Below, one piece after another: positions 2,279 to 27,718 of a stretch of DNA of 64,000 nt. Below the pieces are notes generated by a model, which was not told the origin of the DNA, did not search any database, and worked only from the letters and a program-made list of their open reading frames with translations. The translations under genes and the position numbers were made by a program. The DNA comes from a virus. Position 1 is the first letter of the stretch. Each line of letters starts with the position of its first letter. The DNA lies in IMG/VR virus record IMGVR_UViG_3300042197_002946, positions 32,001 through 96,000 of that record. One strand, given 5' to 3'.

Positions 2279-2820
2279 TGGCAGAATTTATATCTGTTAA
2301 TGATGCTGAAAGATTATCTGTTATAGATAATTTTATTGAATCTAGCATCATAGAGATTACCACAGGATTTCCTGGCCCTCCAGGCAAGGATGGATCACAA
2401 GGACTGCCAGGTCCAAGAGGGCCACGAGGTCGTACTGGTCCAGCATCACAACCCAATGAAATTGTTAAACTTACTGGTACCACCACCAATTCATCATCAT
2501 ATATACTTAACGCTGGAGAAACTAGTCTATATTTAAAAAATGGCTCTATAGTTTCGTTTTATGCGTCTATATCTGCATATAATATTACCGATGACACAGC
2601 AGCAGCATTTAACATAGAGGGAGCTGCTAAGCGAAATTTATCTGGAGCGGTATCTTTGGTTGGATCGTTAAATACTACTAATTTTAGTGATAACGGAATG
2701 GGAGGAGTTACTGTTTCTACAGAGACAGACAGCCCTAATGGATCGTTTGTATTCGTTGTCACAGGATTAGAGTCCAAGAACATTATATGGACAGGAACCG
2801 TTTTTATTAATAAAGCATGA
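2278..2820 (+). CDS. Short collagen-repeat fibre/decoration protein
   Basis: Nine Gly-X-Y triplets (GFP GPP GKD GSQ GLP GPR GPR GRT GPA) at 2365-2445, followed by a beta-rich domain. Confidence 0.7.
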   Translation: MAEFISVNDAERLSVIDNFIESSIIEITTGFPGPPGKDGSQGLPGPRGPRGRTGPASQPNEIVKLTGTTTNSSSYILNAGETSLYLKNGSIVSFYASISAYNITDDTAAAFNIEGAAKRNLSGAVSLVGSLNTTNFSDNGMGGVTVSTETDSPNGSFVFVVTGLESKNIIWTGTVFINKA

Positions 2821-3758
2821 AAGTAGCAGTAATCCTTTATCTATACAATTCTGCATTATTATCTGAATATATTTCTTTATTAGCCCCTATTAAAAAAGAT
2901 ATTCATTTATTTATTGGAGTATGTCTTGATAATGAAGCAGATATATTCTTAATAGAAAAAACTTTGATGTCTAATCATATAGATTATACATTATCTACAC
3001 ATCACAATATTGGTTTGGATATAGGTCCTTTTTTACAACAGATCCAGACGGTAGATTCCTCCAAATATAAAACATTTATCAAACTGCATTCCAAACAATC
3101 CTTGTGGGGTTATTACAAGAATATTCCTTGGAGAATTCCTTTAGTAAATTCTTTAATAGGTAGTGATATAATTTTTAAGACCAATCGTCAACATATACAA
3201 AACAATAAACATGTTGGAATGATAGCCAATACCGGATTTATGCTAGGCAGAGATAAAGAAGGTAGAAACTCCAATATTATTAAAGATATATGTACAAACT
3301 TTTTATCTATTAATATCGAAGAAATTAACAGAACAGACATATCGTTTGTGGCTGGAAGTATTTTTTGGTCGCATACTGAGATTTTTCAAAAATATTTTAC
3401 TCCATCTGTTATTCATAAGCTGTATTCGTTATTGGAGAGTAAAAGATTTAATGACTCTAAACAAGGGACATATGCACACTCTTTAGAAAGAATCTTTGGA
3501 TATATTATAGGACTGTCTGGATATCACATTATTGACGGTTTTGTGGATAAAACTATAGACATCACCAATACAAAATCAAATTATTCTTATAAATTAATAC
3601 AATGCTATAATAAAGTATGTTATGTTGATATTGATGTTCTTACAGCGGGTATACACTATCACATAGGAGACTCTCTACTGATCAATTGGAAGCACAAGAG
3701 CTACAATGGGTTTTGGAAAAAATACCACAAGATCACAGACCTATCATACATAAGTTGA
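2817..3758 (+). CDS. RgpF/rhamnan synthesis protein F-like glycosyltransferase (paralog 2)
   Basis: VAVILYLY, HNIGLDIGPF, FIKLHSKQS, WR..L, FVAGSIFW, HSLERIFG; collinear with 79..831. Confidence 0.8.
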   Translation: MKVAVILYLYNSALLSEYISLLAPIKKDIHLFIGVCLDNEADIFLIEKTLMSNHIDYTLSTHHNIGLDIGPFLQQIQTVDSSKYKTFIKLHSKQSLWGYYKNIPWRIPLVNSLIGSDIIFKTNRQHIQNNKHVGMIANTGFMLGRDKEGRNSNIIKDICTNFLSINIEEINRTDISFVAGSIFWSHTEIFQKYFTPSVIHKLYSLLESKRFNDSKQGTYAHSLERIFGYIIGLSGYHIIDGFVDKTIDITNTKSNYSYKLIQCYNKVCYVDIDVLTAGIHYHIGDSLLINWKHKSYNGFWKKYHKITDLSYIS

Positions 3759-9840: not shown

Positions 9841-9880
9841 AATAGCACCAGCAGATTTCGGTCTGTTGGTGTTATTTTTT
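9841..9880 (+). terminator. Rho-independent terminator immediately upstream of TMP
   Basis: AATAGCACCAGCAGAT-TTCG-GTCTGTTGGTGTTATT stem (with G-U pairs), then a T-run. Confidence 0.7.
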
Positions 9881-9904: not shown

Positions 9905-12900
9905 ATGGCTAAAGCTTTTAATCTTACAGCAGAATTAAATCTTAGAGGCCCATCTAATCTCAAGCAGATAGCAGCGTCCATTCGTAGAGAGATCGGGACC
10001 GTAGACGCTACTGTTAATGTTAAGATAGACAGAGCGGCCGAAAGATCCATACTTAATAGTGCTAATGCTCTAAATAGATTAAATAGAGAACTTCAGACAA
10101 CAGCAACAGCCTCAGCCTCATCCACCAATAACATCAACAACCTTGTCGCATCATTAAATAGCCTAAGTAATGCTTTGACTGGATCTAATAATTCTATGCA
10201 GCGCATAGTTTCTACATCAGAGCAAACAGCCAGACAAATGTCTCGAATTAGAAAGACGACAGCAGTAGCGCGAGATGAGATGGAAGAGTTTGGTCGTCAA
10301 TCAGCTTTGGCTGTGCGACGTTTTGCTGCCTTTAATTTTGCTACCGGAGTTATTTATGGTTTTTATAATGCAATTTCCAAAGCTTTGGGAGAATTTACAG
10401 AGTTTGATAGACAGTTGGTGCGATTAACGCAAATTACTGGAGAATCTTATAGCGAGCTAAGCAGGATAACAGAAACAATTACTGGATTATCAACCGGCTT
10501 GGGTGTTGCATCAGGAGACCTTATCCGCATATCGGATACATTAGCTCAGGCTGGCTTGAGTGCCAGAGAAACAGACCAAGCATTGAGGGCTTTGGCTTTG
10601 ACGGCTCTAGCTCCGTCCTTCGATGACCTGAATAACACTGTCGAAGGATCTATTGCATTAATGAGACAGTTTAAAATCGGTACTGATGATTTAGCTGGCG
10701 CTCTAGGTTCTATTAACGCAGTAGCTGCTGGTTTTGCTGTTGAGGCCGGTGATATTATTACAGCTATTCAGCGTACTGGTGGTGTGTTTGCCGCAGCTAG
10801 TAAAGGGGTTAGCGAAGGCACCGATGCGTTAAATGAATTTATTGCGGTATTTACTAGTGTAAGAGCCACAACTCGTGAAAGCGCAGAAACAATTGCTACA
10901 GGCTTGAGAACTATTTTTACTCGTATTCAACGAGAAGATACTATTGAGGCATTAAAAGAATATGGAGTTAATCTATTGGATGTAGAAGGTAAATTCGTTG
11001 GAGCTTATCGAGCTGTACAATTACTAAGCGAAGGTCTTGGCAAACTAGATCCTAGAGACGTAAGCTTTTCTAGAATAGTAGAAGAGCTTGGTGGATTTAG
11101 ACAGATTGGTAAGGTGCTTCCGTTGATTCAAGAATTCAGCACAGCACAACAAGCTTTAACAGTAGCTCAAAGAGGGCAAAATTCATTAGCGGCAGATGCA
11201 GCCAAAGCTCAGTCAGCATTAACAGTACAGTTTACCAAGACTAGAGAGTCATTTGTTGCTTTAATTCGAGATATTGGCAGTAGCGATAGCTTTAAAACAC
11301 TTATTAGTTTAGGCTTGACACTAGCTAATACATTCATCAAAGTAGCTGATTTCGCCAAGCCTCTACTTCCCATCCTAACAACCATCGCAGCATTACAAGG
11401 AGCTAAATCGTTAACGAGTTTTGTTGGTGGTTTCGTAGGGGGATTGCGTAAAGTACGTCCGGGAGAAGACGGAGGGGGCGGTGGAGGACCAGCTAATAGG
11501 GCTAGAACTGAAAGATCAGCCGCAGACATTACAGATAACTCTAGATATTTAGACGCCAACACCACAGCTTTGATGGGTCTGGGTACAGCTATGGGGGGTC
11601 TAACAGCAGTTATTAGTCCATTACAAGCTTCTATAGATAATTTGGGTAATGCAGCTATAGCTCAATTAAATAATGAGATTGTTGCTCTGAACAACACTAT
11701 GAGCAGTATTGATCTAGGCGGAGCCGCAACAGCTAAAGATGGTGGCAGAATATTACGTTTTGCTAGAGGAGGAGCTGTTCCTGGTAGCGGACGAGGAGAC
11801 AAAGTTCCGGCCATGCTGGAACCCGGTGAAGTTGTTATGAGCAATCGGGCTGTTAGTAAGTATGGAAGAGGTAATTTGGTAAGGATGAATAAGTATGCAA
11901 AAGGAGGAAAACCAAAAAGAGGAGTTCCTAATCAAGTTAATACTACGGATGTGGTTGATGGAGATACAATTGGTGCAGACATTTTCACCAATCTAACATT
12001 TAGATTTAGCGGAATTGACGCTCCAGAAAAATCTGAACCGCTTGGTGACAAAGCGACATCGGTATTGACTAACAAGAAGTTGAGCTACTTTAATAACAAA
12101 ATCACAAGTGGCGTCGGAGGTAAATCCAGGGGCTTATTTAAAGACGATGCATTAGCTGGCCAAATGATTCGTAGTGGTTTGGCAGTTCCAGATATAAGAT
12201 ATGCTAAGAACAAATTTAGTAGTGATGTTGAAGCAGGTAGAGCAGCAGGACAGGGCTTATGGAATAGTTCGTATGCTAATCATCCTAAAAGATTACAGTT
12301 TAAAGAGCAATACGGATATAGTTTTGGGGGTCAAATTCAAAAATTTATGAGCGGATCAGCCGGAGGAGTTAAGTCTAAACCCGAACCATTCGGTACAGGA
12401 GTCACCAAATTTCCTCGTCGTATAAGTAATGCCTACGCTAAACAGACGGAAAAGGAAAAGACAGATAGACATTTTGATAGACTCATACAAAACAGTCCTA
12501 TTAATGAAAGAATCATGGTTGATGAGGCTATGGAACAGCAGATATCCCAAGGGATGCAGCAGCCATTAGATCGTGAAAAATTTGCAGCGTCTTTTAGACG
12601 AGCTGTTTTAAGAGACGAAATAGCATCCAACATATCTAATTTTGCTAAATTGGTTGGACTTCCACAAGAAGATTTGTCTGTAGTATTACCAAGACAACTA
12701 GATTTTGGCTCTGGTTCTGGTCCTATAGGATCTCGTGGAGGTAGAGATGTTTTAGGTGGGGCTTTTACAACCATTAGTCCTTATGGTAGTCGTGGAGCAG
12801 AAGGCTGGGATCTTAGTGAGTTTGGTTATACTAAGCAGGACGAACAAGACCTATTCGGCTTAGAAAAACTGTTAGAAGAAAAGAAAAAAGAACGTGATAA

Positions 12901-15900
12901 AATACGCAAAACTCCAACACGTACTTTTGATGATGGTAGTTTTAGCTATGATTTGCAAGCCGCTGATAAGGCTAGCGATGAATATAATGCATTAAATAAA
13001 CAGATATATGATATTAGAAAAAAAAGAGATACTGCTATTTCTGCGGCCAACAAAGCTAGAGAAGAAGAAGTTGCATCATCTGGTAGAGCCACATTAGGTT
13101 TTGGTACTAGATTTGGTAAGGCTCAGAACCCTGTATTTTATCACGAATTAACACATCAACTATTCAAAGGATTAAGAGCAAAATCTGCTGATAGTTTTGA
13201 AAAATACAAGCAAAGAGTAACAACATTATTTGAAACCGACAACGATGGTTTGGCAGATGCTTTTGATGCTCTAGGTGCCGGTTATAGTAGTGCTGATGTT
13301 GTTTATGGACGAGCATATAAGCTAGATTTATTAGGAGCTAGACAAAGAGAAGAAATTAGAAAAGATCCAGCAGGAGAAGATGTTAAAAATCTGTCATCTA
13401 TTATTAAGTCTGGAAGTGCAGCTAAAAAAGCAACACAATTTCGCCCAATCAATCCAAGTTTCAATGAGGCTATGCTTAAGTTTTATAGCCAAGAGCATTT
13501 GGATAAGGTTGAAGATAATGGCAAAGAAGAATTCTTAACGACTCTTGTAGAAAAAATGCCGGTGTTGGACCAGCGTTTACAGGGCATATTGGACTCCACG
13601 ATGACAGAATTGTTGGGTGGAGCAGGAATACAGAGACAACAATATTTTGATGGTGGTTGGGTAGAAAGAATGAAAACACAACCAGACGACATATTACGTC
13701 GAGAGCTGCAGATGTTGCATTCTGGCAGTTTTATGCTATCGGTAGGAGAACGAAAAGTTTTAGCAAGTACTTTTGCTGGTCTTGGCAAATATGAAGATAT
13801 TGGAAAAAGAGAATTAGTAGCACGTATGCAGGCTATAAAAGATTATTTAGACGAAAGAGCTATTAACCAAAAAACAAAGTACGCAAAACGCAGAGGTCCT
13901 GGTCTACAAGCTACTGAAAAGTACAATGAACAAGAAATGTTGGATGCTGTTAACTACTATGCTGCTGGTAGTGGTCCTTTCACAAAGGCATTGGTTTCTG
14001 GCGCCAAAACGTTTAAGGAGCCCAGAGGAGAGACCTATAAAACAAAAGATATTAAAGATAGGCTATTAGCAGCTAGTCAATTTACAATCCCAAAGAAAAC
14101 CTATAGTGGTTTAGGACGAAGTCAATTTAGAGAAATATTGAGCGATACAAATACCACTCCCAAAAAACTTGCCACCAAAACAGACGAGACTTTACGAGGT
14201 TTGGTTGGTCAGACTATAGATTTTCCGACATTTTTATCCGTTAGCGCACAAAAAGATCAAGCAGAAGCTTTCGTACAAAATCCTGGAGCATTATTAAGTA
14301 TCGATGGTAGTAGTACAAGTCAAAAAACTATTGATGTTGTCAAAGCAAGAAGAAAAACACAAATTGATGACAGTGCGATTAAATCTAGCAGAAGATTAAA
14401 GGGCATAGAAAACATTAGCGAAAAAAAATTAGATATATACGAAGAAGAACAAGAGTTTATTGTTCCTCCTAATGTTGGTTTTAAAATCACCAAAGCCACA
14501 GGCACAGTTTACCAAGACCTTTCTGCTAAAGACTTAAAATCAAAATCTAAAAAAGCATTATCAGTATTTGATGATATCGATATGTTTTCTGATCCGGATA
14601 TTGATGATTTTGACAAGACTAGGCTCGATATTAAAGTGAATATGTTGAGATCGGGAGGTATTGTTCAAAAGTTCATGGACGGTGGAGTTGCTCAACGTAA
14701 GCTTGGTTATATAGACTATGATGTGATAGCTAATCCGGCTAATGAAGCTGTTGTAGCTAAAGGTATGGAAGCTACTGGAGTTAGCGGTCCTAGATTATAT
14801 ACTGATAAATTAATTGAAATGGCAGTCAAAGCCAGAAAAGAGCAGAGCTTAAATAAGCTTCGAGCTATTTATGGTGTTGCCGGAGCAGGAAAAACCACTA
14901 TGGCTCGTGGACAAGGTACCGACAAAGGAACTCTGCGAGAAACAACAAGATTTCCTATATTAAGTCCAGAGGATATTCATAGAGCCAATGAAATTATTCT
15001 ATTAAGTAGTAGTGTATCGCAAGATAAGTTGGATACACTATTTGCTGATGTAGATAGAGCTTATACTCTTAGTAGTACCACATCTGAAGAAAAAGAAAGA
15101 ATTAAAAGCCAAAGAGCAAGTCGAGACGCGACTGGAGTTGGTTTAGAGGGTCGTACTCCAGGATCAACTACTGGAGTTGCTAGGGATACTGTGGTAGGAG
15201 AAGCATTACTTGCTGATCGTTTAGGCGATAGGTCGGTTGTTCTAGGTCGTACGGAAAGTGGTAGACTAAGACGAAAAAGAGGGGACGAGCTTGTTGAAAT
15301 AGTTAAAAAGCGCATAGGAATGACTTGGGGCGGTTTTGCTCCTATGACAGCAGGACATGAAAGCATATTAGATGCTGCTGCTGCTATGGGCATATCTCCA
15401 GAAGACTTTGTATTTTTAGTAGGTTCTAATGAAAGCATAAAGCTTGGTGATCCATCTTCCTATAGAACAGCAATATTTAATCAAGACGCAAGAGTATTAT
15501 TAGCTAAAGCCGGAGCCGGAGCACGAGGAGCTACCGTAGTACCAAAAGCAGCAGATTTTGAGGTTCCTCTTGGTATAGATATTTCTGAACAAGAAGGCCG
15601 CAGAAAAGTGTTGTTGCCGGGCGAGGGCAGCACAGTTTTTGTTGCAGACAAAACAGAACAACAAACTGCAAAATATCGAGAAGCAGGATATAAGGTTAGT
15701 CATATAGAGCGCACGGGCGGAATTAGCGGCACTATGGTGAGAGATTTGATCATGAGCGGCAACATGGCCGAACTACAAAAGGTCTTAAGTCCAGGAGTTT
15801 ATGACTTAATTTCTAATAATATTGGGCGAATTCAGAATAGAGCTAATGTTTTACCAGATATTATAGAGCAGGTAAAACAAAGTCAGGGAGTTAAATTAGC

Positions 15901-18900: not shown

Positions 18901-21900
18901 TGGCGGAAGTCCTCCAGTTCCTCCGAGTAGTCCTCCTTCTGGCGACACTGAGGCTATGATTCAACGATATATGATGGAGCTTGAAACTGCTGCAAAAGCA
19001 ACTAAGCTACAAACATATCAGACAGAAAGACTAGCCGGAGCTACTGCTTCTGAAGCTAAGGCACGAGCAGACGCAGCCGCTTTCGCAGCCTATCAAGCAT
19101 TAGCTCAACAAAGACTAACAACAGCAACTACTGAAGAAGCTTCAGCAATCAATGAGGCTAGAAGTAGAATGGCTGCTACCAGAGGAGGAGCTACGGTTAC
19201 TGCTCAAGAATTTACCCCAGTAGCGCAATCTTTGAGCAGAGGAGGAGCCCCGGCACCAGACACTACAGACTACAGAAAACTAGCTCAAGACAATATTCAA
19301 GCATTGCAAGAAATGAATACTAGCGCATTAGCTTGGGCTGGAGGATCAGTCCTTGCCATTAAGGGACTAAGTGGGTTGGTAGGATCTTCCACTGCTTTAG
19401 GTAGCGCACTAGATGGAGTTTCCAATAGTGTTGGCAATACCCAAGCATTATTTTTAGGATTTAATAAGGTTCTTCGATTTGCATCAGAGATAGGAGTATC
19501 CGAAGAAGCATCCAAGAAAATAGAGGACTTTTCTGCCAAATTAATAGATGCTGGTCGTATGGTAAATAATTGGGCAGCTAAATTACCGGATGGACTATTT
19601 AAAAATTTAGCATCCAAATTAGGGGGAGGTATAGATTTGGGTGGAGGTCAATTAGGTAAACTAGGAGCTAAATTACCACAAGTTATTAGCAGTGTTACAT
19701 CATCGCTAACGGCTATTATGCCAACAGCTCAATTAGTTGTTGGTGGTCTCAATGCGGCAGCACAAGCGTTTATTGCTTATACTGATGCTATTCGAAATAA
19801 TAAAGTAGAGAATGCTACCAAAGCTTTGGATACTAGTTTAAAAAATGCCAGCAGTGCTTTGGATCTATATAATAAAAATACAGTAGATAATGCTAATCAG
19901 CTATCAGTAATGAATGCTGAGATTGGTAGAGCAGCCGCAGCAGCTAAAACTTTAGCAGACATAGATAAAACCAATCAAAAATGGAGTACTACTAATCTTA
20001 TTGGCGAAACACTAGCGATGGGTGGAGGAGGAGCAGAAAGCCGAGCCCAACGAGCAGAAATTTTGGACAAGAAAGGAACTATGGCATACGTTGGGTCACT
20101 ATTAGATTTTACAGGAGGTACTCAACAAAGATATTCCCAAGAATTAGCTCCACAGCAAGCTATCAAATCTTCTGAACAGTTCGCCAAGGTTGCCACTCTT
20201 ATTCAGCAGCAAAATCAAGCTAGATTTAAGGCTGGTGAAAGTTCATCAGATATTATGAATAGTCCTGAATGGGCACAACAAGCAGAAGTGATCGCAAGAG
20301 CTAATGCTGCTACAGAAGAAAGGCTACGATTAATAGATGCTGATATAAGCTTGTCTAAATCAGCTAGAGAAGCACGAAAGCAAGAATTGATACAATTCGC
20401 AGCAGCGGGAGCGGTAAGAAGTCAAGAAATTCAAGCCATTAGACAGGCAAATAATGACAGAGCCAATCAGGAGAGCGGAGCCCTCCTATACAGCTTAGAG
20501 CGAATGTTGAACAATATGGAACAGAGCATCAGTTCTGTAACATATTCATTAAGTAAGCTTGCCGATCAAACAGATTTACTTAGATCGTCTATGACGGGAG
20601 AGGCCAAAATAGGGTCTTCAAGAGTGGATGCTATTAATGTTTTACAAAATCCCAATGTATCTAGCGATGTAGAAAGAGCACAAGCATCTAAGACAGCTTC
20701 TCAGTTTTTTGGTGCTCAAGGGAAAGATATTGAGGGATTATTAAATTTTGGTCCTAAATTAGAAGAAACTATTTTGTCTTCCATCAATAGAACAGTTAAA
20801 GAAGATCCCAATGCTGGAAGCGGCAAAATCGAGGCTAGAATATCACAGAATTTGGAAAAAGAATTAGGCAAGCTAAATATTGATGCTGGACTTAGACAAG
20901 TTGTATCTAAACAAATGGCAGGATCCATCACTGACTCTAGAACAAAGGGTGATGATAAAACAGACTTTAAGACTCTTTTCAGTGAAACGGCAGCATTTGG
21001 AAAGATTGTTCAGTCAACTAAGAGAGCACAAGAAGCTGCTGTGAAAGCTTTAGAATTCTATCAGCAGTCAGTAAATAACTATGCTCAGTCAATGAATGAG
21101 ATGGTTAGTTTACAAATATCGTCTAACGAAAAATTTAGAAGAGCATCAGATATTCGTGCTCGTGGAGAGTTAGATCTAGCTAAAACTTTAGGAAAGAGCG
21201 TTTCATTCGAAAAATCAAAACAAGTGGCACAAGCTGGAGTTATCAGTCAAGCAGGCACAGCTGACCCAACAGCAATCTTTAATAATATAGGTCGTTTGGA
21301 ACAAGTTAGACAAAGTCAACAAGGAGCCTTAAACTCAGCAGTTCAAGGAGGACCACGTAATCAAAAAGATATAATAGCTTTCAATAGAGAGTTAGCTTCT
21401 ACAACAATGGGACTTAGAGAAAACTATGCCGCACTCAAGGGATTAGCAGAGAGTACGGAAGTAGCGCAAGCTGCTATGACCAAAATTGGAGAATTAAAAG
21501 CTAAAAATGAAGCAGGTCTTAATATTCTAGAAAGATTCGTAACATCTTCTCCAAAAGATCAAGCTAAATTAAGTGGCGCTTTTGAACGTTTAGATCGTAA
21601 TATGAATGGTCAAATTAATAATATGTGGGATTCTGCAAGAGTGCAAGAAGCATACAATGAAGCGCTACAAAGTGGCGCTAGTATGCAAGAAGCCCAAGAT
21701 GCAGCAGATTCGGCAGCTGCACAAGATAGAGGGGATACTCTAGAAGCGTTCAGAATGTTGGCTCCTATGCTTGGAGAAAATCAAAACGAATTAAAAGCCA
21801 ATATGCTTGAATCTATGATGAGAGAGTCTGGTACTGAAACCAGCCCAATGTTTAGTAAGGTTATCGAAGGACTCAGAAATCCCGAGCAAGATCCCCAGAT

Positions 21901-24900
21901 GGCAGAAGCTATCAATCAATACAAACAGGCTATCGAATTGCAGTCTCAAGCTAATCGTTACTTAGCTATGTTAGACGGTAGATTAGCTATAGACATTGGA
22001 CAGCAGTCTCAAGCAGCCTTTACTAACGCACTAAATGGTGTTGGTCAAGCTTTCGCTAATACCAATACAGCAGACATGGCTAAGGGTATTCAGCAATTAA
22101 ACGATCATCTCAGAGGCGGAGTTACCAAAGTTACAAATGTTGGCGGAGGTGGAGCCCTGCCTTTTGCTAGAGGAGGTAAGGTTGAATACCGAGCTGTTGG
22201 TGGGTCTATCTTCCAACCAAAAGGAACTGATACAGTACCAGCTATGTTAACTCCGGGAGAATTCGTAGTCAATAAGAGAGCCGCTTCTGCTAACAAAGGA
22301 ATTTTAACAGCTATTAATAATGGATACTCTAAAGGAGGTAGTGTCAAATATCTTGCTGAAGGCGGCTGGGTATCTGATATGTTAACTCCTGAAACCGATA
22401 GGTTCGGAGACGCTAAACCAGGGGAACTATATACCAAATGGGATGATTTTTCTAAGTTTGCCTCTGGCAATGATGTAAAAGCCAATATAGAAAAAATTAA
22501 AGCTAATAGTAAAGATATTTACTTTTATAAACCACACTCTTACCCAACATTCTCTGCTAGAGAAACTGAGAGTTCAGAATTGTTGTCTCAATTGAAATCT
22601 GGCATGGATGGAGATAATTCCTTTTTTGGTTTTCTTCCAGACTTTAGTATGAGTTTACTGAATACCGCAGGGAATATTATTGGAGCAACAGCACAAGGAG
22701 TTGGCACAGGGGCTGTGGGAGGCGCTGCTATGGCAGCTAATCCGGCTCAATTTGTATCTGCTACTGCTGCTGGTAATTTTTCACAAGGACAAAATACTGC
22801 CGGAGCTTTGTTGGGTAATGGTAAATTAGGAACAGCTGCGAGCTGGATATGGGAAGCTATGAAGTTTGTCCCAGGTTTAGGTGGAGTTGTTTCTGGTATA
22901 GACGCTTTTAAGAAATTAGTTTTTGATTATGATCTGATCGGTGGAGCACTAGAAGCCGTTAATGCTGTGTTCTCTCTAATACCATTTCCTGGAGCTGGCT
23001 TGCTTGGCAAGGGAATAAGTAAAGGATTGGGATGGATGATGAAAATTTTTGGAAAAGGTAGAGTAGCCACAATGGGTAAAACCTGGATACCTAAATTAAT
23101 AGAAGCCACTGGCGCAACAAGACTAATGAATACAGTAAAAGGATGGCTAGGTCAGGGGCCTGCTAATTTAGTGGAAAAATTACTACCAGATGTTGTTAAG
23201 AAAAAGCTTGGTCTAAATTTAGCTGGGGCTGGTAAATCTGGCGCAACGTTGGCTAGAGAAGGCATTGAACAAATGTCTCCTGATGTTTTGGATGCCTATA
23301 AAGCATATAGAAAAGCAGGAATGGCGGCTGATGAAGCTTTGGCTAGAGCTAAAGGCAGACTGAATTATGTGGGATCATCAACTAGCGGTATGCAAGCTTC
23401 GGCAGCACAAGCAGCAGCTAGAAATGCTAGCGATGCTGGGCTTGCTGGTAGAGCTACAATTAATGATATGGCCGCTAGGGCTGTCACAGGATCAGCATAC
23501 GGAGCCGGGGCTATGGGTACCGCCGCCGCTGGTACTGCATATATGCAGGGTCGAACACCCAGCGCAACCATGAGCGGGGCAGATAAACTGAAAAGTATCA
23601 CAGAAGCTCTTGGATTCAAGATCCCAGATCAGTTCAGAAGTCCAGAGACAACATCAAAAATCTTTGATGAAAATTTAGATAATTTAGCTCTGTCGGAGGC
23701 ACAGATGCAGTTATCTGCTGTTGAAATGTGGATCAAGGCTATAGATGAGGCTAATAAATGGTCAGAGACCAATAAGCCACCCAAAGCAAAGGCTTCGTAT
23801 TCCAATGGTTCTTATAATTTTACATCTGAACCAGTAAATAAAAAAGAGTATATGTATGCCACTATTGGAGAAGCACTAAGTACAGATGCTATCATGGGTG
23901 ATTTGAAACCCAATATAATTAAATTCTACAAGAGCGGTAATCCTACTTTATCTAATAGTCCAGACACCAATCAAATCAGCGCAGCTGCCGAGAGTTTCAT
24001 CAAGTCACAAGGTCGAGATTTTGATCAGTTATTAAGTACAGATAACTATAATAGATTTCAAGACATTAACAGTATCAAAGACTATTTACAAGATTACTAT
24101 GATAGTTTAAGAGAAATTAACACTGCAACCACGACACCAGAAAAATATAACTCCGCACACTGGAGTCCTGCTCAACCATCTAAACAAAAAGAAGGCAGAA
24201 TCTCCTCTATCTTAGGGTCTTTGCAGGCCGGTACTAGATATAGCTATGATTTTAAGAAATCTGAATTAGCCAAAGTCAGTGATTTCCAATGGGGGTCATC
24301 CGCACCAGCACCCGCTAAGGATGGAGAAAAACCCGCAGAATCCAAAGATACTGGAGATGTATTAACCGTTTATGGTACCGAAATGAGGGCGATTTGGTCA
24401 AATATTAGAGATGCTGAAGATGAAACTATCAAAGAGGCCATAAAGAATAAAAATATATGGGATGGAAAAGCAGAGAACGCTTTTAGAATTTACAAACAGG
24501 GATCATCTCCTGATCAATATGATCCTCTACCATGGACAACCAATCCGTCTTTAATTACAGCTGGAATGAGACAATTAGCTCAACAGTCTACGGAAGATAA
24601 TATAGCAAGTACTATAGGATTAAAAATGGGAACAGTGTCTCGTTTTGATAAAGTCATCGACCTGCCGAAAGCAAAAAGAGAACTACCAGTAAGCTTTAGC
24701 TACCAACCCTTCCAACAAATCCCACTATTAGATCCAGCGACTACAGATATTGATAGTGCTGTTAATCAATTTTTACCAGGAGCAACTTCAACAGAACCTA
24801 GTCCCACCCCTGTTCCTGGTGTGTTTATTAAATACAGAGCTACCGAAGCGGCAGACCCAACCCTCAGCCCATTCTCATCAATGGCTCCTGGGGCAGATAA

Positions 24901-27718
24901 GCTTATGCCTTATTATAGTAGTGTAGCTAATATGGAGAAAGCTGTCAACGATTGGGCATTAGGTAATTTTGATAGGGTGGCCGACTGGAGCTTGCTCGGA
25001 GTATCTCTTGCATCGGGATATTCGCCCATCAAGGCAGAAGCAGCAATGAAAAGCGCCGAGAGTATCAGAGGAGCCAGAACAAAAAGAAAGAGCAAAGAAG
25101 GATCTGTACCAGATAAAGAATCATCTATTAATAGTGCTACAGAATATTTATTTAAAAAAGATGCATTATTCTATAAGGATGATTTCTTATCGGCGGTGGA
25201 ACCATCATATCCAGAAGCTGGAAATATTGCAGGAGCTAAAATACCTAACCTTGTTGATATTATGCAGAGACGTGCGGCTAGGCAAATAGCTGGCAATAAA
25301 GATGCGAAAAAGGCAGAGATATCAGCTAAGGCCAGTTTAGTTAATTTCAAGAGCGAAGAAGTTCCTTTATTAGGTGATATTGTTTGGCAAAAAATTAAAG
25401 AATCATCACTAGCTGCTGGACCAGCATTATCTAGTGCTGCTGATTGGCAAAATGCAGCAACTGCTGACGGTGTTCCACCACCAGCTAAAATTAGTGGTCA
25501 AGACGATTTAATGGCAGCTGTGGACTATATAGCTTGGATTCAGGCTAAGGTACTAAGACTAAGAGATAAGGCCACAGAACAAAATAATAGAGAGTCTGTT
25601 GAAAATCTAGGCTCTGAAGCTGAATTTGGTAAGTACATGAGTGCTGGAAGATTTTTAAGTCAACTAGCTTCTGATTCTGAAAGGCCAGTAACAGCTAGTA
25701 CCACCATAGGACAAGCCAGTGAGAGACTGTACAGTAAATATATGAACGAGAATAAACTAGATAAATATATCAAAAAGTCTGCATTCAAGGACAAAGACTC
25801 TGGGAAAGATATAGAACAACAGTTCTGGGATGTTCCTAAAATTATCAATGAAGACAAAAGTTTTGTAGATTATATTCTTGGTTTTGCTAATCAGACTCGC
25901 ACAGCTCAAAGATTCAGACAAGCTGTCACAGGCAACGGTAGGGCAGAGCTGGGTGGTGAGCAGAAAGCGCTACTGCAAGGACAATTCAAAGCTTTTGGTC
26001 AATCAAAGAGCGCTACTGCTATGATGGGATCTGGAGCTAAAGATGCTGCTCAAACAACGATGAAAGTAGCTAGTGCTGATGGTATAGAAGAAATTGCTAT
26101 TCCAACAGAAATAGATAATGTTATTGATCAATTTTTAGATACTAGTAAGGTTTATGAACCACTATACAGAGAAACTTTAGGCAAAATACTTGAGACTAAC
26201 GGTAGAACATACGCAGAAAAATGGACAAAAAGCGGAGACCCAGGCACTGCTGGATGGGCTTCTATATGGGGAGAGTATTCAGAGCAACTCACAGCTTTAA
26301 CTGACTTTTTAGTTAATAGAGACAGATTATTAATGAGACCCATAGCAACCGAAGGGTCTTCTTTATATCCTCCAGCCGTCTTGCCATCTATCTCAGAAAG
26401 CTTATTGCCCACTTTACAATCTGTTGCTCAGGTTTCTGGCATTAAGCCCCCAGAAGATGTCACGGCCGAAACGCTATTGGGAGCTATTAATGATAGAGCA
26501 TTGATGATGGAGCAGATCAAGAGATTTATGGCCTCGGTTTCTCCCACTGCCCCAGAGGACTACGAGAAACGCGATCAAATGAAGAAAATAGCCAAACAAG
26601 CGATGGATTTTTATGAAAACAATCTGTCCCCATCTTCGTTACCTAGAGTCTTTACTCAAGAGGGTAATGAGATATGGAATAAATTACGAGAAAATTATAA
26701 AGCTGCAAATGAAGCGTATATGGGTTTTGCTGCTGATGGTAGCGATGTCTCTGTAGGACTAGGATCTTTGGAGGATATTTATAACCCATCACAAATGCCA
26801 TATGCACAAAATACATTATACGGTTTATATTATAGACTTAATAAACAAGCAGGTACTAATAATACAGTAGAGGCTCTTATGAATGAGAAGGCTGCTAAAG
26901 ACAAGGCAGCAGCAGCAGGAGCAACACCAAAACCAGAAACACAAACCCAAGACGTACCAGCACAAGCGGCAGCCGCTGCTCCCAAAGAGCCGGAACCAGG
27001 AATACCTCCAGAACCAACCAGAGAAGAAGCAGAAAGAAAAGTACAGGCCAGAGCTAAGGGTGGTCTAATTTATAGAGCTGATGGAGGAGCAGCTCCTGTG
27101 AATTGGAGCCCAAGAGGCACTGATACTGTACCAGCCATGTTAACTCCTGGCGAATTTGTGATCAATAGAGGAGCTACACAGAAATACTTACCAATTTTAG
27201 AAGCTATTAATAATGGCAGTACAACAGCTGGTCAAATTGTTACATATGCTAATCGTGGTGGAGTAATTAAACCTAAATATTTCCAAGTGGGTGGAAGTGT
27301 TGAAGGAGCCTCAAGTGGTGTATCTACTTCATATAGTATGGGGTTTGATAGTGCCACATTGGCCGCTATTAAGCAATTTGATAGCAGTGTTCAATCTCTT
27401 GGAGATGCTTTATCCGGATTACAACTTGGCAACATCAAAATAGATGAGGCTGCATTAAGTGCATTGGGGGATTTTGCTACACGATTTGATCAGTTTACAC
27501 AAAGCTTATTGAAACTCAATGTACCACCAGTTATTAGCATCACAGGACAACATGAGGTCAATGTGAATATTAATGGCACATCTGTATTTAATAATATGGA
27601 AGAGAAAATGAAGCAGCTTATTAGTCAAGAAGTGGATAAGGCTTTCACTCAGCTATCTAAGGAAACAGAAGGTAACATTACTATGAATTATAAGCCACCA
27701 CAATCACCCATGGGTTAA
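9905..27718 (+). CDS. Giant (5937 aa) tail tape-measure protein carrying multiple enzymatic domains
   Basis: N-terminal TP901-type TMP core (EFDRQLVRLTQITG...LAQAG...TRESAETIATGLRTIFTRI), hydrophobic segments, long Ala/Gln-rich helical regions, position after tube and chaperones; internal enzyme motifs listed separately. Confidence 0.9.
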   Translation: MAKAFNLTAELNLRGPSNLKQIAASIRREIGTVDATVNVKIDRAAERSILNSANALNRLNRELQTTATASASSTNNINNLVASLNSLSNALTGSNNSMQRIVSTSEQTARQMSRIRKTTAVARDEMEEFGRQSALAVRRFAAFNFATGVIYGFYNAISKALGEFTEFDRQLVRLTQITGESYSELSRITETITGLSTGLGVASGDLIRISDTLAQAGLSARETDQALRALALTALAPSFDDLNNTVEGSIALMRQFKIGTDDLAGALGSINAVAAGFAVEAGDIITAIQRTGGVFAAASKGVSEGTDALNEFIAVFTSVRATTRESAETIATGLRTIFTRIQREDTIEALKEYGVNLLDVEGKFVGAYRAVQLLSEGLGKLDPRDVSFSRIVEELGGFRQIGKVLPLIQEFSTAQQALTVAQRGQNSLAADAAKAQSALTVQFTKTRESFVALIRDIGSSDSFKTLISLGLTLANTFIKVADFAKPLLPILTTIAALQGAKSLTSFVGGFVGGLRKVRPGEDGGGGGGPANRARTERSAADITDNSRYLDANTTALMGLGTAMGGLTAVISPLQASIDNLGNAAIAQLNNEIVALNNTMSSIDLGGAATAKDGGRILRFARGGAVPGSGRGDKVPAMLEPGEVVMSNRAVSKYGRGNLVRMNKYAKGGKPKRGVPNQVNTTDVVDGDTIGADIFTNLTFRFSGIDAPEKSEPLGDKATSVLTNKKLSYFNNKITSGVGGKSRGLFKDDALAGQMIRSGLAVPDIRYAKNKFSSDVEAGRAAGQGLWNSSYANHPKRLQFKEQYGYSFGGQIQKFMSGSAGGVKSKPEPFGTGVTKFPRRISNAYAKQTEKEKTDRHFDRLIQNSPINERIMVDEAMEQQISQGMQQPLDREKFAASFRRAVLRDEIASNISNFAKLVGLPQEDLSVVLPRQLDFGSGSGPIGSRGGRDVLGGAFTTISPYGSRGAEGWDLSEFGYTKQDEQDLFGLEKLLEEKKKERDKIRKTPTRTFDDGSFSYDLQAADKASDEYNALNKQIYDIRKKRDTAISAANKAREEEVASSGRATLGFGTRFGKAQNPVFYHELTHQLFKGLRAKSADSFEKYKQRVTTLFETDNDGLADAFDALGAGYSSADVVYGRAYKLDLLGARQREEIRKDPAGEDVKNLSSIIKSGSAAKKATQFRPINPSFNEAMLKFYSQEHLDKVEDNGKEEFLTTLVEKMPVLDQRLQGILDSTMTELLGGAGIQRQQYFDGGWVERMKTQPDDILRRELQMLHSGSFMLSVGERKVLASTFAGLGKYEDIGKRELVARMQAIKDYLDERAINQKTKYAKRRGPGLQATEKYNEQEMLDAVNYYAAGSGPFTKALVSGAKTFKEPRGETYKTKDIKDRLLAASQFTIPKKTYSGLGRSQFREILSDTNTTPKKLATKTDETLRGLVGQTIDFPTFLSVSAQKDQAEAFVQNPGALLSIDGSSTSQKTIDVVKARRKTQIDDSAIKSSRRLKGIENISEKKLDIYEEEQEFIVPPNVGFKITKATGTVYQDLSAKDLKSKSKKALSVFDDIDMFSDPDIDDFDKTRLDIKVNMLRSGGIVQKFMDGGVAQRKLGYIDYDVIANPANEAVVAKGMEATGVSGPRLYTDKLIEMAVKARKEQSLNKLRAIYGVAGAGKTTMARGQGTDKGTLRETTRFPILSPEDIHRANEIILLSSSVSQDKLDTLFADVDRAYTLSSTTSEEKERIKSQRASRDATGVGLEGRTPGSTTGVARDTVVGEALLADRLGDRSVVLGRTESGRLRRKRGDELVEIVKKRIGMTWGGFAPMTAGHESILDAAAAMGISPEDFVFLVGSNESIKLGDPSSYRTAIFNQDARVLLAKAGAGARGATVVPKAADFEVPLGIDISEQEGRRKVLLPGEGSTVFVADKTEQQTAKYREAGYKVSHIERTGGISGTMVRDLIMSGNMAELQKVLSPGVYDLISNNIGRIQNRANVLPDIIEQVKQSQGVKLAEVERAIKAVGISRIDPKKMEDPEYAAKVQVLEELRSQRDKIKRSAAFEPYRLLDKLAASQPEQYALDFSQSQIATPAPVRTVKDRAMAAVAAETSSLTSVSSGDAGIGTGQSLLDNLATRLKALGGESGLKALLKEVGEGIPLNLQKQLRTDQIKRGVLDTARVTGLIEKAEERQRQKKAEREGTRHVAMAGLQPLDYSWDPEWELADGRKYIATIRGFKSSYLQDIQRFRDRQKAAALEFGKDTTATEALDLLGQNTVQGPSRPLAIDFDETLAFGTKMLDSSGQEDISAYYDEARVREVLSKATPTRLAQRLLEIEKDQPGTVRAYTRVLTARAESLKHLVTETLNRFGLPYTDSDITGVGQRGDNDRAIARKKADNLSTIERFIDDNEKNISAAQQKGIQSYRYSEPKAFENASDYEPFGAGNIEGALLEQTLAMKIGRPIDFEALEQNRALDFPNGLGAAASLFGLPPNIETEVKRTLNKDSFTKARSEFNRYFKENPDKYNAGGVAGFADGGTVPALVSNGEAYVPPKLAKKIGYGKLNRMNQADRNGMGRFADGGISVFKGPGSGTSDSIPTSLPVGSFVIRAKATKALGLNRGGSVGVTSPQRFEMGGEVLTAAEMQRLELDMRKVFESLPEQLRDSIRNLDLPDVDTSTWNTIDISLRKVFLSVNRNVDTLGKDVVEAMRAMTTAGQNALQSIDLDRVRTRQSEIASDRGYTQVDKDRMKADVSLAKDARGAVSDRKRKNRERQEQGKAPFPMLDLMEMMRSSVGRSPDPISVTAATPVPEVQSPSRDAEYYRQRMNYSDVSGNKNTPISDRGMAYAGELTKQDDSKVDALVKQMRDMFSSAMAGIGQTPSAAGQSESWATWDIGKQLFMNQNPDQSSDKYQLGNPMQDPKLVLQMVQRMVGYEVSGGGQREGKANNIPSFELVEIGAKAMAESLGKNQAALDAFLSLVSGITVDDIVGPASPGAPTSPTPPTAPIPPTPPTPPSGGSPPSGGGSPPVPPSSPPSGDTEAMIQRYMMELETAAKATKLQTYQTERLAGATASEAKARADAAAFAAYQALAQQRLTTATTEEASAINEARSRMAATRGGATVTAQEFTPVAQSLSRGGAPAPDTTDYRKLAQDNIQALQEMNTSALAWAGGSVLAIKGLSGLVGSSTALGSALDGVSNSVGNTQALFLGFNKVLRFASEIGVSEEASKKIEDFSAKLIDAGRMVNNWAAKLPDGLFKNLASKLGGGIDLGGGQLGKLGAKLPQVISSVTSSLTAIMPTAQLVVGGLNAAAQAFIAYTDAIRNNKVENATKALDTSLKNASSALDLYNKNTVDNANQLSVMNAEIGRAAAAAKTLADIDKTNQKWSTTNLIGETLAMGGGGAESRAQRAEILDKKGTMAYVGSLLDFTGGTQQRYSQELAPQQAIKSSEQFAKVATLIQQQNQARFKAGESSSDIMNSPEWAQQAEVIARANAATEERLRLIDADISLSKSAREARKQELIQFAAAGAVRSQEIQAIRQANNDRANQESGALLYSLERMLNNMEQSISSVTYSLSKLADQTDLLRSSMTGEAKIGSSRVDAINVLQNPNVSSDVERAQASKTASQFFGAQGKDIEGLLNFGPKLEETILSSINRTVKEDPNAGSGKIEARISQNLEKELGKLNIDAGLRQVVSKQMAGSITDSRTKGDDKTDFKTLFSETAAFGKIVQSTKRAQEAAVKALEFYQQSVNNYAQSMNEMVSLQISSNEKFRRASDIRARGELDLAKTLGKSVSFEKSKQVAQAGVISQAGTADPTAIFNNIGRLEQVRQSQQGALNSAVQGGPRNQKDIIAFNRELASTTMGLRENYAALKGLAESTEVAQAAMTKIGELKAKNEAGLNILERFVTSSPKDQAKLSGAFERLDRNMNGQINNMWDSARVQEAYNEALQSGASMQEAQDAADSAAAQDRGDTLEAFRMLAPMLGENQNELKANMLESMMRESGTETSPMFSKVIEGLRNPEQDPQMAEAINQYKQAIELQSQANRYLAMLDGRLAIDIGQQSQAAFTNALNGVGQAFANTNTADMAKGIQQLNDHLRGGVTKVTNVGGGGALPFARGGKVEYRAVGGSIFQPKGTDTVPAMLTPGEFVVNKRAASANKGILTAINNGYSKGGSVKYLAEGGWVSDMLTPETDRFGDAKPGELYTKWDDFSKFASGNDVKANIEKIKANSKDIYFYKPHSYPTFSARETESSELLSQLKSGMDGDNSFFGFLPDFSMSLLNTAGNIIGATAQGVGTGAVGGAAMAANPAQFVSATAAGNFSQGQNTAGALLGNGKLGTAASWIWEAMKFVPGLGGVVSGIDAFKKLVFDYDLIGGALEAVNAVFSLIPFPGAGLLGKGISKGLGWMMKIFGKGRVATMGKTWIPKLIEATGATRLMNTVKGWLGQGPANLVEKLLPDVVKKKLGLNLAGAGKSGATLAREGIEQMSPDVLDAYKAYRKAGMAADEALARAKGRLNYVGSSTSGMQASAAQAAARNASDAGLAGRATINDMAARAVTGSAYGAGAMGTAAAGTAYMQGRTPSATMSGADKLKSITEALGFKIPDQFRSPETTSKIFDENLDNLALSEAQMQLSAVEMWIKAIDEANKWSETNKPPKAKASYSNGSYNFTSEPVNKKEYMYATIGEALSTDAIMGDLKPNIIKFYKSGNPTLSNSPDTNQISAAAESFIKSQGRDFDQLLSTDNYNRFQDINSIKDYLQDYYDSLREINTATTTPEKYNSAHWSPAQPSKQKEGRISSILGSLQAGTRYSYDFKKSELAKVSDFQWGSSAPAPAKDGEKPAESKDTGDVLTVYGTEMRAIWSNIRDAEDETIKEAIKNKNIWDGKAENAFRIYKQGSSPDQYDPLPWTTNPSLITAGMRQLAQQSTEDNIASTIGLKMGTVSRFDKVIDLPKAKRELPVSFSYQPFQQIPLLDPATTDIDSAVNQFLPGATSTEPSPTPVPGVFIKYRATEAADPTLSPFSSMAPGADKLMPYYSSVANMEKAVNDWALGNFDRVADWSLLGVSLASGYSPIKAEAAMKSAESIRGARTKRKSKEGSVPDKESSINSATEYLFKKDALFYKDDFLSAVEPSYPEAGNIAGAKIPNLVDIMQRRAARQIAGNKDAKKAEISAKASLVNFKSEEVPLLGDIVWQKIKESSLAAGPALSSAADWQNAATADGVPPPAKISGQDDLMAAVDYIAWIQAKVLRLRDKATEQNNRESVENLGSEAEFGKYMSAGRFLSQLASDSERPVTASTTIGQASERLYSKYMNENKLDKYIKKSAFKDKDSGKDIEQQFWDVPKIINEDKSFVDYILGFANQTRTAQRFRQAVTGNGRAELGGEQKALLQGQFKAFGQSKSATAMMGSGAKDAAQTTMKVASADGIEEIAIPTEIDNVIDQFLDTSKVYEPLYRETLGKILETNGRTYAEKWTKSGDPGTAGWASIWGEYSEQLTALTDFLVNRDRLLMRPIATEGSSLYPPAVLPSISESLLPTLQSVAQVSGIKPPEDVTAETLLGAINDRALMMEQIKRFMASVSPTAPEDYEKRDQMKKIAKQAMDFYENNLSPSSLPRVFTQEGNEIWNKLRENYKAANEAYMGFAADGSDVSVGLGSLEDIYNPSQMPYAQNTLYGLYYRLNKQAGTNNTVEALMNEKAAKDKAAAAGATPKPETQTQDVPAQAAAAAPKEPEPGIPPEPTREEAERKVQARAKGGLIYRADGGAAPVNWSPRGTDTVPAMLTPGEFVINRGATQKYLPILEAINNGSTTAGQIVTYANRGGVIKPKYFQVGGSVEGASSGVSTSYSMGFDSATLAAIKQFDSSVQSLGDALSGLQLGNIKIDEAALSALGDFATRFDQFTQSLLKLNVPPVISITGQHEVNVNINGTSVFNNMEEKMKQLISQEVDKAFTQLSKETEGNITMNYKPPQSPMG
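11940..12270 (+). other. SNase/thermonuclease-like domain within TMP
   Basis: VVDGDT, FRFSGIDAPE, MIRSGLA, A...GQGLW. Confidence 0.85.
12380..13640 (+). other. Zincin-like metallopeptidase domain within TMP
   Basis: VFYHELTHQL (HExxH at 13142-13156) and downstream KEEFL (~13523). Confidence 0.65.
13930..14644 (+). other. ADP-ribosyltransferase (VIP2/C3/Alt-like, R-S-E clade) domain within TMP
   Basis: TYSGL (YRG position, 14102), FPTFLSVS (FxSTS position, 14231), A..F, LLSI, EQEFIVPPNVGFKIT (ExE at 14447-14455). Confidence 0.75.
14860..15200 (+). other. P-loop (Walker A) kinase-like domain within TMP
   Basis: AIYGVAGAGKTTMAR at ~14864-14908; downstream RIKSQRASR lid-like segment. Confidence 0.7.
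15310..15830 (+). other. (H/T)xGH nucleotidyltransferase (cytidylyltransferase/NMNAT-like) domain within TMP
   Basis: GGFAPMTAGH (15329-15358) and ISGTMVRDLI (15722), then LSPGVYDLI. Confidence 0.8.
16690..17125 (+). other. HAD-superfamily phosphatase domain within TMP
   Basis: Motif I LAIDFDETL (16706), motif II VLTAR, motif III RKK, motif IV FIDDNEKNI (17063). Confidence 0.85.
17160..17400 (+). other. Probable PD-(D/E)xK nuclease-fold domain within TMP
   Basis: GALLEQ...ALDFP...ETEVKR spacing (E 17198, D 17267, ExK 17330-17338). Confidence 0.45.

Follow-up and report, generated by a model that had tools for sequence, protein, structure and literature searches.

Phage enzymes that are injected into the host cell are known from heads, as in the cases of T4 Alt, MuF fusions, and the N4 RNA polymerase (RNAP). 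The present study deals with a candidate for delivery through the tail, a giant tape measure protein (TMP) that carries a train of putative enzyme domains. It is encoded in a stretch of viral DNA of 64,000 nucleotides (nt) (positions 32,001 to 96,000 of the IMG/VR record IMGVR_UViG_3300042197_002946), which is referred to as the window in the following.

Polyvalent proteins are built on anchors such as MuF, portal, N4 virion RNAP, and relaxases, and their cargo is packaged in the head or moved by a type IV secretion system (Iyer, Burroughs, Anand, de Souza, & Aravind, 2017; PMC5512222). The Thermus phage P23-45 protein gp96 (also P74-26, G20c, and TSP4) is a TMP of 5,002 amino acids (aa) with a fused virion RNAP (Chaban et al., 2024; PMC10770324). 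During assembly of the T5 tail, a cut in pb2 separates an enzymatic domain from a hydrophobic stretch; this domain remains in the tail and is expelled (10.1101/2022.09.20.507954). From lambda gpH, a piece of ~14 kDa is cut from the Gly-rich C-terminal region; residues ~690–817 are unresolved, and neither the site nor the protease is known (PMC12617516). The TMP of mycobacteriophage TM4 contains peptidoglycan-hydrolase motifs that aid infection (PMC1796659).

Architecture of the tape measure protein

The TMP gene is a single uninterrupted open reading frame (ORF) at window position 9905..27718 on the plus strand. All motifs listed for this region in an initial annotation, which had been made from the sequence alone, were found in this one ORF at the positions given there, and the observation of a giant TMP with a motif train is confirmed. 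The overall anatomy was also described correctly (TMP core, enzyme train, resumed TMP body, second block). The scaffold consists of an N-terminal TP901-type core, a middle region of ~850 aa, and a C-terminal end, with two variable slots. Amino acid positions were converted to window positions by nt = 9905 + 3(aa − 1). The features are as follows.

9905..27718, plus strand: tape measure protein ORF, 5,937 aa, no cysteine
9905..11749, plus strand: N-terminal TMP core, TP901/PhageMin_Tail type, aa 1–615 (PF10145, PHROG)
11738..11950, plus strand: joint mini-domain copy 1 (FARGG..GDKVPAMLEPGEVV..YAKGG; alignment A10)
11927..12349, plus strand: SNase cassette, domain aa 698–787 (nt 11996–12265; PF00565)
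12377..13669, plus strand: HExxH module, aa 825–1255, HELTH at aa 1080 (nt 13142–13156; invariant motifs)
13667..14674, plus strand: ADP-ribosyltransferase (ART) cassette, ART fold aa 1331–1582 (nt 13895–14650; VIP2/C3 fold)
14687..15304, plus strand: P-loop NTPase domain, aa 1595–1800, Walker A GVAGAGKT at aa 1657 (nt 14873–14896)
15305..15856, plus strand: HIGH-superfamily nucleotidyltransferase (NTase), NMNAT/PPAT/TmcAL-like, aa 1801–1984
15932..16669, plus strand: helical low-confidence connector, aa 2010–2255, in the same joint-bounded unit as P-loop, NTase, and HAD
16676..17128, plus strand: HAD phosphatase, polynucleotide-kinase-phosphatase-like, aa 2258–2408, DFDET at aa 2268 (nt 16706)
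17147..17419, plus strand: subdomain of ~90 aa, candidate PD-(D/E)xK nuclease, aa 2415–2505 (E..D(FP)..(E/D)xK pattern)
17420..17770, plus strand: joint mini-domain copies 2 and 3 (alignment)
17762..22174, plus strand: second scaffold region, aa 2620–4090, C-terminal ~850 aa conserved
22148..22384, plus strand: joint mini-domain copy 4 (TDTVPAMLTPGEFV; tblastn, PDB profile)
22382..27109, plus strand: second variable block, aa 4160–5735, no internal GG joint
27038..27322, plus strand: joint mini-domain copy 5 (alignment)
27272..27715, plus strand: conserved TMP C-terminal end, aa 5790–5937 (extreme C-termini of relatives)

At least 534 relatives with a length of 3,265–10,390 aa were found in a collection of 5.8 billion proteins; 119 of them are listed (median 5,262 aa, maximum 7,670 aa). 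Modules were surveyed in two sets, one of 80 relatives and one of these 119 full-length relatives, the latter chosen by similarity of the N-terminal core alone.

The core was assigned to PF10145 (PhageMin_Tail) at aa 191–384 with an E-value of 3.4e-21 (76.5 bits, cut-off 33.2) and matched the PHROG tape-measure families 4211, 28, and 1272, which substantiates the TP901-type TMP core of the initial annotation. It is 25% identical to the SPbeta TMP YomI, and the source annotation of relatives reads "TP901 family phage tail tape measure protein".

The second scaffold region was matched in 57 of the 80 and 116 of the 119 relatives, its last ~850 residues being the family-conserved part. Helical TMP-like sequence had been proposed to resume here (17750–22160); no match to a TMP profile was obtained (Pfam, PHROG, and PDB searches of aa 2620–4090 were all negative). 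Hydrophobic Gly-rich segments are located at aa 2947–2965 and 3141–3159. A low-complexity stretch rich in Pro, Thr, Ser, and Gly (PTSPTPPTAPIPPTPPTPPSGGSPPSGG..., window ~18827–18970, aa ~2975–3022) was noticed right after a hydrophobic segment.

The block that follows, placed at 22370–27040 in the initial annotation, is present. Neither Pfam nor PHROG recognized a family in it, the PDB gave no match, and the ESM Atlas gave no lead. It contains a hydrophobic Gly-rich segment (aa 4344–4367) and is common to the 10 closest relatives only among the 119 listed. Since three relatives hold the HExxH module at the same place, aa 4160–5735 represents a second variable slot. The C-terminal ~140 residues of the protein match the extreme C-termini of complete relatives (8 of 80 and 65 of 119).

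Enzyme cassettes of the first slot

For domain analysis, the protein was cut at recurring phi-x-x-G-G motifs, and each piece was analyzed. AlphaFold2 models were calculated for aa 1595–2512 and aa 825–1590 with alignments from related IMG/VR loci (mean predicted local distance difference test (pLDDT) 77.8 and 83.4, respectively). The first slot comprises four joint-bounded cassettes, namely the SNase, the HExxH module, the ART, and a multi-domain unit of 910 aa. In the PDB, phmmer found no match to the cargo block as a whole.

The SNase cassette was identified by PF00565 (E 3e-4, 21.7 bits, curated cut-off 21). All of its 15 weak PDB matches are staphylococcal thermonuclease, and the alignment spans DGDT..FR..IDAPE. 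It is rare among the relatives (1 of 80 and 0 of 119).

The HExxH module displays the invariant motifs YHE(L/M)THQLF, DAFDAL, SADVxYGR, and GKEEFLTT. In the AlphaFold2 model (pLDDT ~90), HExxH lies in a helix after a strand. No match was found in Pfam, the PDB, or the ESM Atlas (scores 0.78–0.82), the fold-search list being filled by ART matches, and Pfam assigned no peptidase family to 11 homologues. A profile search of 1.84 billion representatives returned 43 proteins, all of them giant TMPs or fragments. As judged from sequence, the module forms a family of its own and is likely a candidate zincin-like metallopeptidase. Weak Pfam matches to the Lsr2 DNA-binding domain were observed in 5 of the 11 homologues (alignment A4; best E 0.0066) and not in the window copy; they may reflect an RGR/AT-hook-like SGRG stretch right before the HExxH helix. 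Some giant relatives (P0137, P0054, P0153, P0155, and P0156) have two stretches matching the HExxH-module profile, and the C-terminal catalytic half (profile ~222–432) is also found alone.

The third cassette has an ART fold with a non-canonical site. The modeled fold is that of the R-S-E ADP-ribosyltransferases (VIP2/C3/iota type), and relatives of the cassette reach PF03496 with an E-value of 2.7e-9. The second and third motifs are represented by FLSVS (S-x-S) and EQE (E-x-E); in a regex survey, STS-like and ExE motifs were each detected in 6 of 8 relatives. The possibility of an RNAP-like DxDxD site, which P23-45 has, was rejected, the sole match being DPDID at aa 1563 in the tail of the ART cassette.

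The multi-domain unit begins with a P-loop NTPase domain (pLDDT >90), in which K69 of GxAGxGK[ST] and several Asp and Arg residues are invariant. A PDB profile search and Pfam on 17 homologues gave scattered matches at the level of the Walker A motif (STAND, AAA, PhoH, SMC, and ABC; AAA_33 once with E 0.17), and the domain was not reached in the fold-search lists, which were filled by NTase and HAD matches; a kinase is a candidate. The P-loop domain adjoins the NTase in every relative that carries it, in both surveys. Shorter proteins in which the pair stands alone were also looked for, and TMP fragments were the only matches. The NTase motifs GGFAPxTxGH (GGFAPMTAGH at aa 1809, nt 15329) and ISGTxxR are invariant in 17 homologues, and the (H/T)xGH and ISxTxxR motifs lie on a Rossmann-like fold. 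Profile matches in the PDB were MJ0951 (E 3.5e-6), NaMNAT (E 3.9e-5), and NMNAT. The nearest sequence relatives are TmcAL-like, and nicotinamide mononucleotide, phosphopantetheine, or RNA are candidate substrates.

The connector (aa 2010–2255) is mostly helical in the model (pLDDT 34–68) and has no family match in Pfam or PHROG. In the HAD phosphatase, all four HAD motifs (I–IV) are invariant in 27 homologues, and the model has a HAD fold. It was matched by PHROG 415, "polynucleotide kinase" (E 5.4e-5), and a PDB profile search of the HAD unit gave matches with E~1 only. The subdomain at the end of the unit is also found without HAD in relatives. Its D206, K229, and T231 are invariant (alignment A3), and the D...(E/D)xK pattern (aa 2455–2478) falls on a predicted helix and strands, but with a pLDDT of 40–64 and no structural match; a PD-(D/E)xK nuclease is possible. 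No GG joint interrupts the stretch from P-loop to nuclease-like subdomain (aa 1595–2504), and relatives contain it as a whole, which suggests a single enzyme with several domains.

Four of the seven enzyme calls of the initial annotation are supported by profile or structure evidence. PF00565 lies just above its cut-off for the SNase (11940–12270). The ART (13930–14644) is backed by its fold and by PF03496 in relatives, with the canonical Arg replaced; the (H/T)xGH NTase (15329) by invariant motifs, PDB profile matches, and fold; and the HAD phosphatase (16706) by invariant motifs and fold. The remaining three calls hold for their motifs, namely the invariant HExxH at 13142, the retained Walker A at 14873, and the conserved pattern inside 17160–17400, and their names (zincin, kinase, PD-(D/E)xK) stay at this level. 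Pfam also agrees with the reported lack of lysozyme, NlpC, and M23 motifs, as neither these nor any other peptidoglycan hydrolase family was detected.

Joint mini-domains

A Gly-rich mini-domain of ~60 aa with the pattern GG..G(T/S)D(T/K)VPAMLxPGEFV..helix..GG occurs in five copies (aa 631, ~2520, ~2575, 4108, and 5739), which flank the blocks. Copy 1 is present in 77 of the 80 and 100 of the 119 relatives. When the five-copy profile was compared with the PDB, TMP chains only were retrieved: 8zdo_S (gp16, twice; E 1.6e-6), lambda gpH 732–786 (E 6.9e-5), and 8rk3_A (E 1.2e-3). The matched gpH residues lie inside the cleaved-off piece. Likewise, tblastn with one copy found annotated TMPs only, from cultured Nodularia, Brevundimonas, Burkholderia, Rhizobium, Shewanella, Clavibacter, and Gordonia phages. 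Ordinary TMPs, including lambda gpH, contain one copy near the C-terminus.

Each cassette ends in phi-x-x-G-G, the GG being invariant at the end of the cassette alignments, and ~20 phi-xx-GG motifs occur overall. The pLDDT dropped below 50 at each GG joint in both AlphaFold2 models, which indicate that the joints are flexible. The inferred pb2C boundary of T5 (FVPR|AEGG) was considered as the same joint and dismissed, since the likeness is by eye only and has no statistical support. The 3,404-aa TMP of the cultured cyanophage vB_NpeS-2AV2 of Nodularia (KU230356, L130; 6046–16260) contains two mini-domain copies (~aa 986 and 1073) and none of the cargo modules of the window; this phage is a possible tractable model for the joint.

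Exchange of cassettes among relatives

The presence of the modules in the 119 relatives is given below.

N-terminal core: 119 of 119
Middle region: 116 of 119
HAD unit: 88 of 119
C-terminal end: 65 of 119
NTase: 57 of 119
P-loop, always beside the NTase: 56 of 119
HExxH module: 24 of 119
ART: 10 of 119
SNase: 0 of 119

In both surveys, cassettes were gained, lost, or reordered between relatives, and the core and the joints stayed. Catalytic motifs were retained in 90–100% of the homologues at 23–93% identity. Within the 119 relatives, this applied to HExxH (20/20), Walker A (49/55), PxTxGH (53/57), ISxTxxR (51/57), DxDxT (61/62), DD (62/62), and D..(E/D)xK (60–61/62). Such retention exceeds chance and suggests that the cassettes are active rather than relics. 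A comparison of related TMPs had been proposed in the initial annotation, to see whether the cargo varies and core and motifs stay; this is what was found, and the joints stay as well.

The closest relative among the matches listed, P0002 (6,696 aa), is 88% identical in the core and 86% in the C-terminal 2,934 aa, as opposed to 44% in the cargo block, which has extra inserts. This difference in divergence, like the turnover of cassettes, reads as the signature of an arms race, and the pattern as a whole points to exchangeable cassettes held in working order. Of 27 cargo regions from relatives, Pfam recognized an ART in two and an NTase-associated region in one, and hardly anything else.

A scan of IMG/VR with the core yielded 111 relatives, nearly all of whose TMP ORFs overrun the 10-kb flank, that is, exceed 3,800 aa. 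The relatives derive from independent JGI, ENA, Logan, and NCBI assemblies. Judging by these matches, giant TMPs with putative effectors are widespread in uncultured freshwater phages.

Cysteine depletion

The 5,937 residues of the protein include no cysteine. Altogether, 50 Cys were counted in the 611,089 aa of 120 giant TMPs (P0002–P0120 and the window protein), 100 of which are free of Cys. Five sets of cargo-module homologues contain 0 Cys in 51,883 residues, and the other ORFs of the phage have 1.17% Cys. Because the cargo is Cys-free like the scaffold, the cassettes obey the constraint of the scaffold. The absence of Cys fits a shared unfolded passage via a narrow channel and an oxidizing compartment, and is a poor fit with domains that serve in the cytoplasm of the producer only. 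The TMPs of T5, Nodularia, and Brevundimonas phages also have zero Cys.

Genomic context

The parent record (150,336 bp) was rated complete by CheckV. The TMP ORF is the longest in a one-directional run of large virion genes. Over its 17.8 kb it has no stop codon, nor are promoter- or terminator-like sites enriched in it. The neighboring genes, among them a candidate "tube" and a candidate "chaperone", have no family matches, and the gene order is compatible with a TMP locus. The two ORFs before the TMP gene showed no signal for programmed frameshifting between them, and the second has its own ribosome-binding site. A strong terminator-like hairpin (window 9841–9876; 16-bp stem, then a T run) is located after a 309-aa ORF and 28 nt before the TMP start codon, where it could dampen transcription of the low-copy TMP gene. 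In the set of virion genes that precedes the tail genes (window 2278–3758), a collagen-repeat protein (PF01391, E 5e-4, below cut-off) is followed with stop/start overlap by an RgpF-like glycosyltransferase (PF05045, E 4.4e-15).

A Pfam search of the genome for a sheath protein (Phage_sheath_1) gave one match only, which is not significant (12 bits, cut-off 31.4) and is situated at window 49785–50015 within the ORF 49758–52292. Pfam C39 and S78 proteases were absent from the genome, Pfam being insensitive on a genome as divergent as this. Close relatives in culture were not found by megablast, and SPbeta-type TMPs (~25% identity) were the only matches when the core was compared by tblastn. Four contigs of metagenome-assembled genomes were matched for host inference, with inconsistent taxa.

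Proposed delivery of the cargo and alternative explanations

We consider it probable that the protein is the TMP of a large, probably non-contractile-tailed, uncultured freshwater phage that has been turned into a carrier of host-directed enzymes and is ejected via the tail, that is, a TMP-anchored polyvalent effector train. The chain would be stored largely unfolded or extended in the tail lumen and, like other TMPs, would exit via the tail tip with its C-terminus leading when infection begins. Cargo in the head-proximal part would follow via a trans-envelope channel just ahead of the DNA and refold in the cytoplasm, where it would act on nucleic acids, nicotinamide adenine dinucleotide (NAD), and RNA or nucleotide ends before phage gene expression. 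Likely roles would be DNA or RNA cleavage, including the degradation of host or competitor DNA, the ADP-ribosylation of host targets, and RNA-end healing or modification or the synthesis of NAD-type nucleotides against tRNA- or NAD-targeting defences. By analogy with the gpH to gpH* and pb2 to pb2*/pb2C cuts, the joints would probably be proteolytic processing sites that free the cassettes.

Delivery gains indirect support because the cargo is Cys-free as well, because NAD and nucleoside triphosphates (NTPs) are cytoplasmic substrates, and because P23-45 gp96 and T5 pb2C provide precedents. Tail delivery of cytoplasm-acting enzymes before phage gene expression is plausible, and the interpretation given in the initial annotation is partly supported.

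Several points weigh against this account. Packaging, cleavage, and entry of the cargo are inferred throughout. Folded domains of 140–430 aa in 3–6 copies cannot lie side by side in a lumen of ~4 nm, so that unfolded or extended storage has to be assumed. The HExxH module is not a general processing protease, as it occurs in 24 of the 119 relatives only, and no other protease was found (Pfam C39, S78). Three of the domain names, as stated above, are motif-level calls. The ART does not have the canonical Arg of the first motif: it has YSG for YRG, and YS[GS] was found in 8 of 8 relatives. Cys-free sequence is general among TMPs and thus indicates a shared constraint, not delivery as such. Finally, the mini-domain profile did not match T5 pb2.

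A more far-reaching version, in which the protein is a programmable tail-lumen multi-effector injector of a widespread freshwater phage group, is put forward tentatively and seems to us somewhat less probable than not being the case. The protein would be a true polyprotein cut at the gpH-type Gly-rich joints, which would also reveal what kind of site is processed in gpH and pb2. Once released, the Cys-free enzymes would regain their fold in the cytoplasm before the DNA arrives, and the kinase/NTase/Pnkp-phosphatase unit among them would counter abortive infection in advance, by tRNA repair or by restoring NAD-type nucleotides.

The main rival explanation, though an unlikely one, is a late-gene polyprotein whose cassettes are cut off during tail assembly and stay in the producer or are discarded. 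The scaffold alone would be packaged, and the TMP gene would serve as an expression vehicle. Lambda gpH and T5 pb2 are cleaved in tail morphogenesis, the joints are related to the cleaved-off region of gpH, and the difficulty of fitting globular domains into the lumen would vanish. However, the cleaved pieces of T5 and lambda remain in the tail, and a domain restricted to the cytoplasm of the producer would have no evident reason for the total loss of Cys seen in the cargo sets. Moreover, a low-copy TMP is a poor expression route for enzymes needed late.

Still less credit can be given to the assumption that the packaged cargo acts outside the cytoplasm (periplasm, envelope, or biofilm matrix) or is mainly structural (spacer, plug, or head-proximal ballast). 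The retention of catalytic motifs almost without exception argues against this. Enzymes of TMPs are usually periplasmic (T5 pb2C; TM4), and the SNase and the phosphatase could work without cytoplasm-only cofactors, but the ART needs NAD, and the HIGH-NTase and the P-loop domain need NTPs, which are not found in the periplasm. The Pfam result on peptidoglycan hydrolases, reported above, likewise speaks against an extracytoplasmic role.

Similarly improbable is that the protein does not determine tail length and instead represents an ejection or internal virion protein with TMP-type domains, partly stored in the capsid like head-packaged polyvalent proteins. As a continuous helix, 5,937 residues would correspond to a tail of ~890 nm, and the synteny with the upstream "tube" and "chaperone" genes is unverified for want of family matches. 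Nevertheless, TMP-specific elements (the N-terminal core and the five mini-domains) are distributed along the whole chain, the C-terminus is conserved, and no sheath match reached the Pfam cut-off. Long TMPs also have precedents, with 2,441–3,404 aa in cultured siphophages and 5,002 aa in P23-45.

An assembly chimera or read-through artefact joining a TMP gene to unrelated genes, a concern raised in the initial annotation that the metagenomic source and the extreme size might have nourished, is excluded for practical purposes by the collinear relatives on independent contigs (at least 534 relatives from independent assemblies, and P0002 with its 86% identity over 2,934 aa) and by the uninterrupted reading frame without an excess of promoter- or terminator-like sites.

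If the carrier reading is true, hundreds of environmental phages use the TMP as an exchangeable enzyme rack that acts before phage genes are read. A second, tail-borne route for polyvalent effectors would be added, and a natural case of several enzymes passing a tube of ~4 nm would be at hand. The cassettes would offer a stock of activities with a probable role in counter-defence, comprising a nuclease, a non-canonical ART, and enzymes for RNA ends or NAD-type nucleotides. In addition, the common joint ties the giant TMP family to the unsolved cleavage of lambda gpH and makes the gpH question testable via peptides ending at GG joints.

Comparison with known systems

The closest TMP precedent is P23-45 gp96, and the closest concept is that of the polyvalent proteins. 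No description of multi-enzyme TMPs was found in the literature, and the word "tape" is absent from the text of the polyvalent protein paper (PMC5512222).

Like P23-45 gp96, the protein of the window is a giant TMP with cytoplasm-acting enzymes predicted in the head-proximal part; the enzyme of gp96 has been proposed to act during DNA entry (PMC10770324). Unlike gp96, which carries a single RNAP fixed in a small phage group, it contains several unrelated enzymes, shuffled among hundreds of relatives, and no RNAP. T5 pb2 (pb2* and pb2C) and lambda gpH (gpH* and gpHC) are likewise TMPs with a joint next to a separable part, and their pieces stay in the tail. In contrast to their one joint and at most one periplasm-acting enzyme, five mini-domains, ~20 phi-xx-GG motifs, and enzymes of cytoplasmic type are present here. 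As in TM4, enzymatic modules are embedded in the TMP, whereas no wall-targeting enzyme was found by Pfam.

T4 Alt is a separate, head-packaged ART with the canonical Arg; here, the ART is part of the TMP and does not have this residue. T4 PseT is an early gene product and not a virion protein. The P-loop domain shares a joint-bounded unit with the HAD phosphatase here, with the NTase and the helical connector between them, and the hhalign alignment with PseT was confined to Walker A and HAD motif I.

With polyvalent proteins, the TMP has in common that several unrelated enzyme domains are combined in one virion-gene polypeptide of variable architecture (PMC5512222). Typical domains there include HExxH metallopeptidase-like, ART, and nuclease types, and injection with the DNA at the earliest phase has been predicted (PMC5512222). 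The presence of at least two disparate activities in one polypeptide of this kind is accounted for by the SNase, ART, NTase, and HAD domains. A zincin-like metallopeptidase serves as a hub domain there; the HExxH module, whose invariant motif lies in a helix after a strand, has no detectable link to named peptidase families. Further differences are that the anchor is a TMP, that the predicted route is the tail lumen, and that the cassettes are delimited by TMP-type Gly-rich joints. As far as can be judged from sequence comparisons, the tape-measure-anchored polyvalent train thus follows a known concept, and its multi-enzyme TMP form appears to be new relative to known systems.

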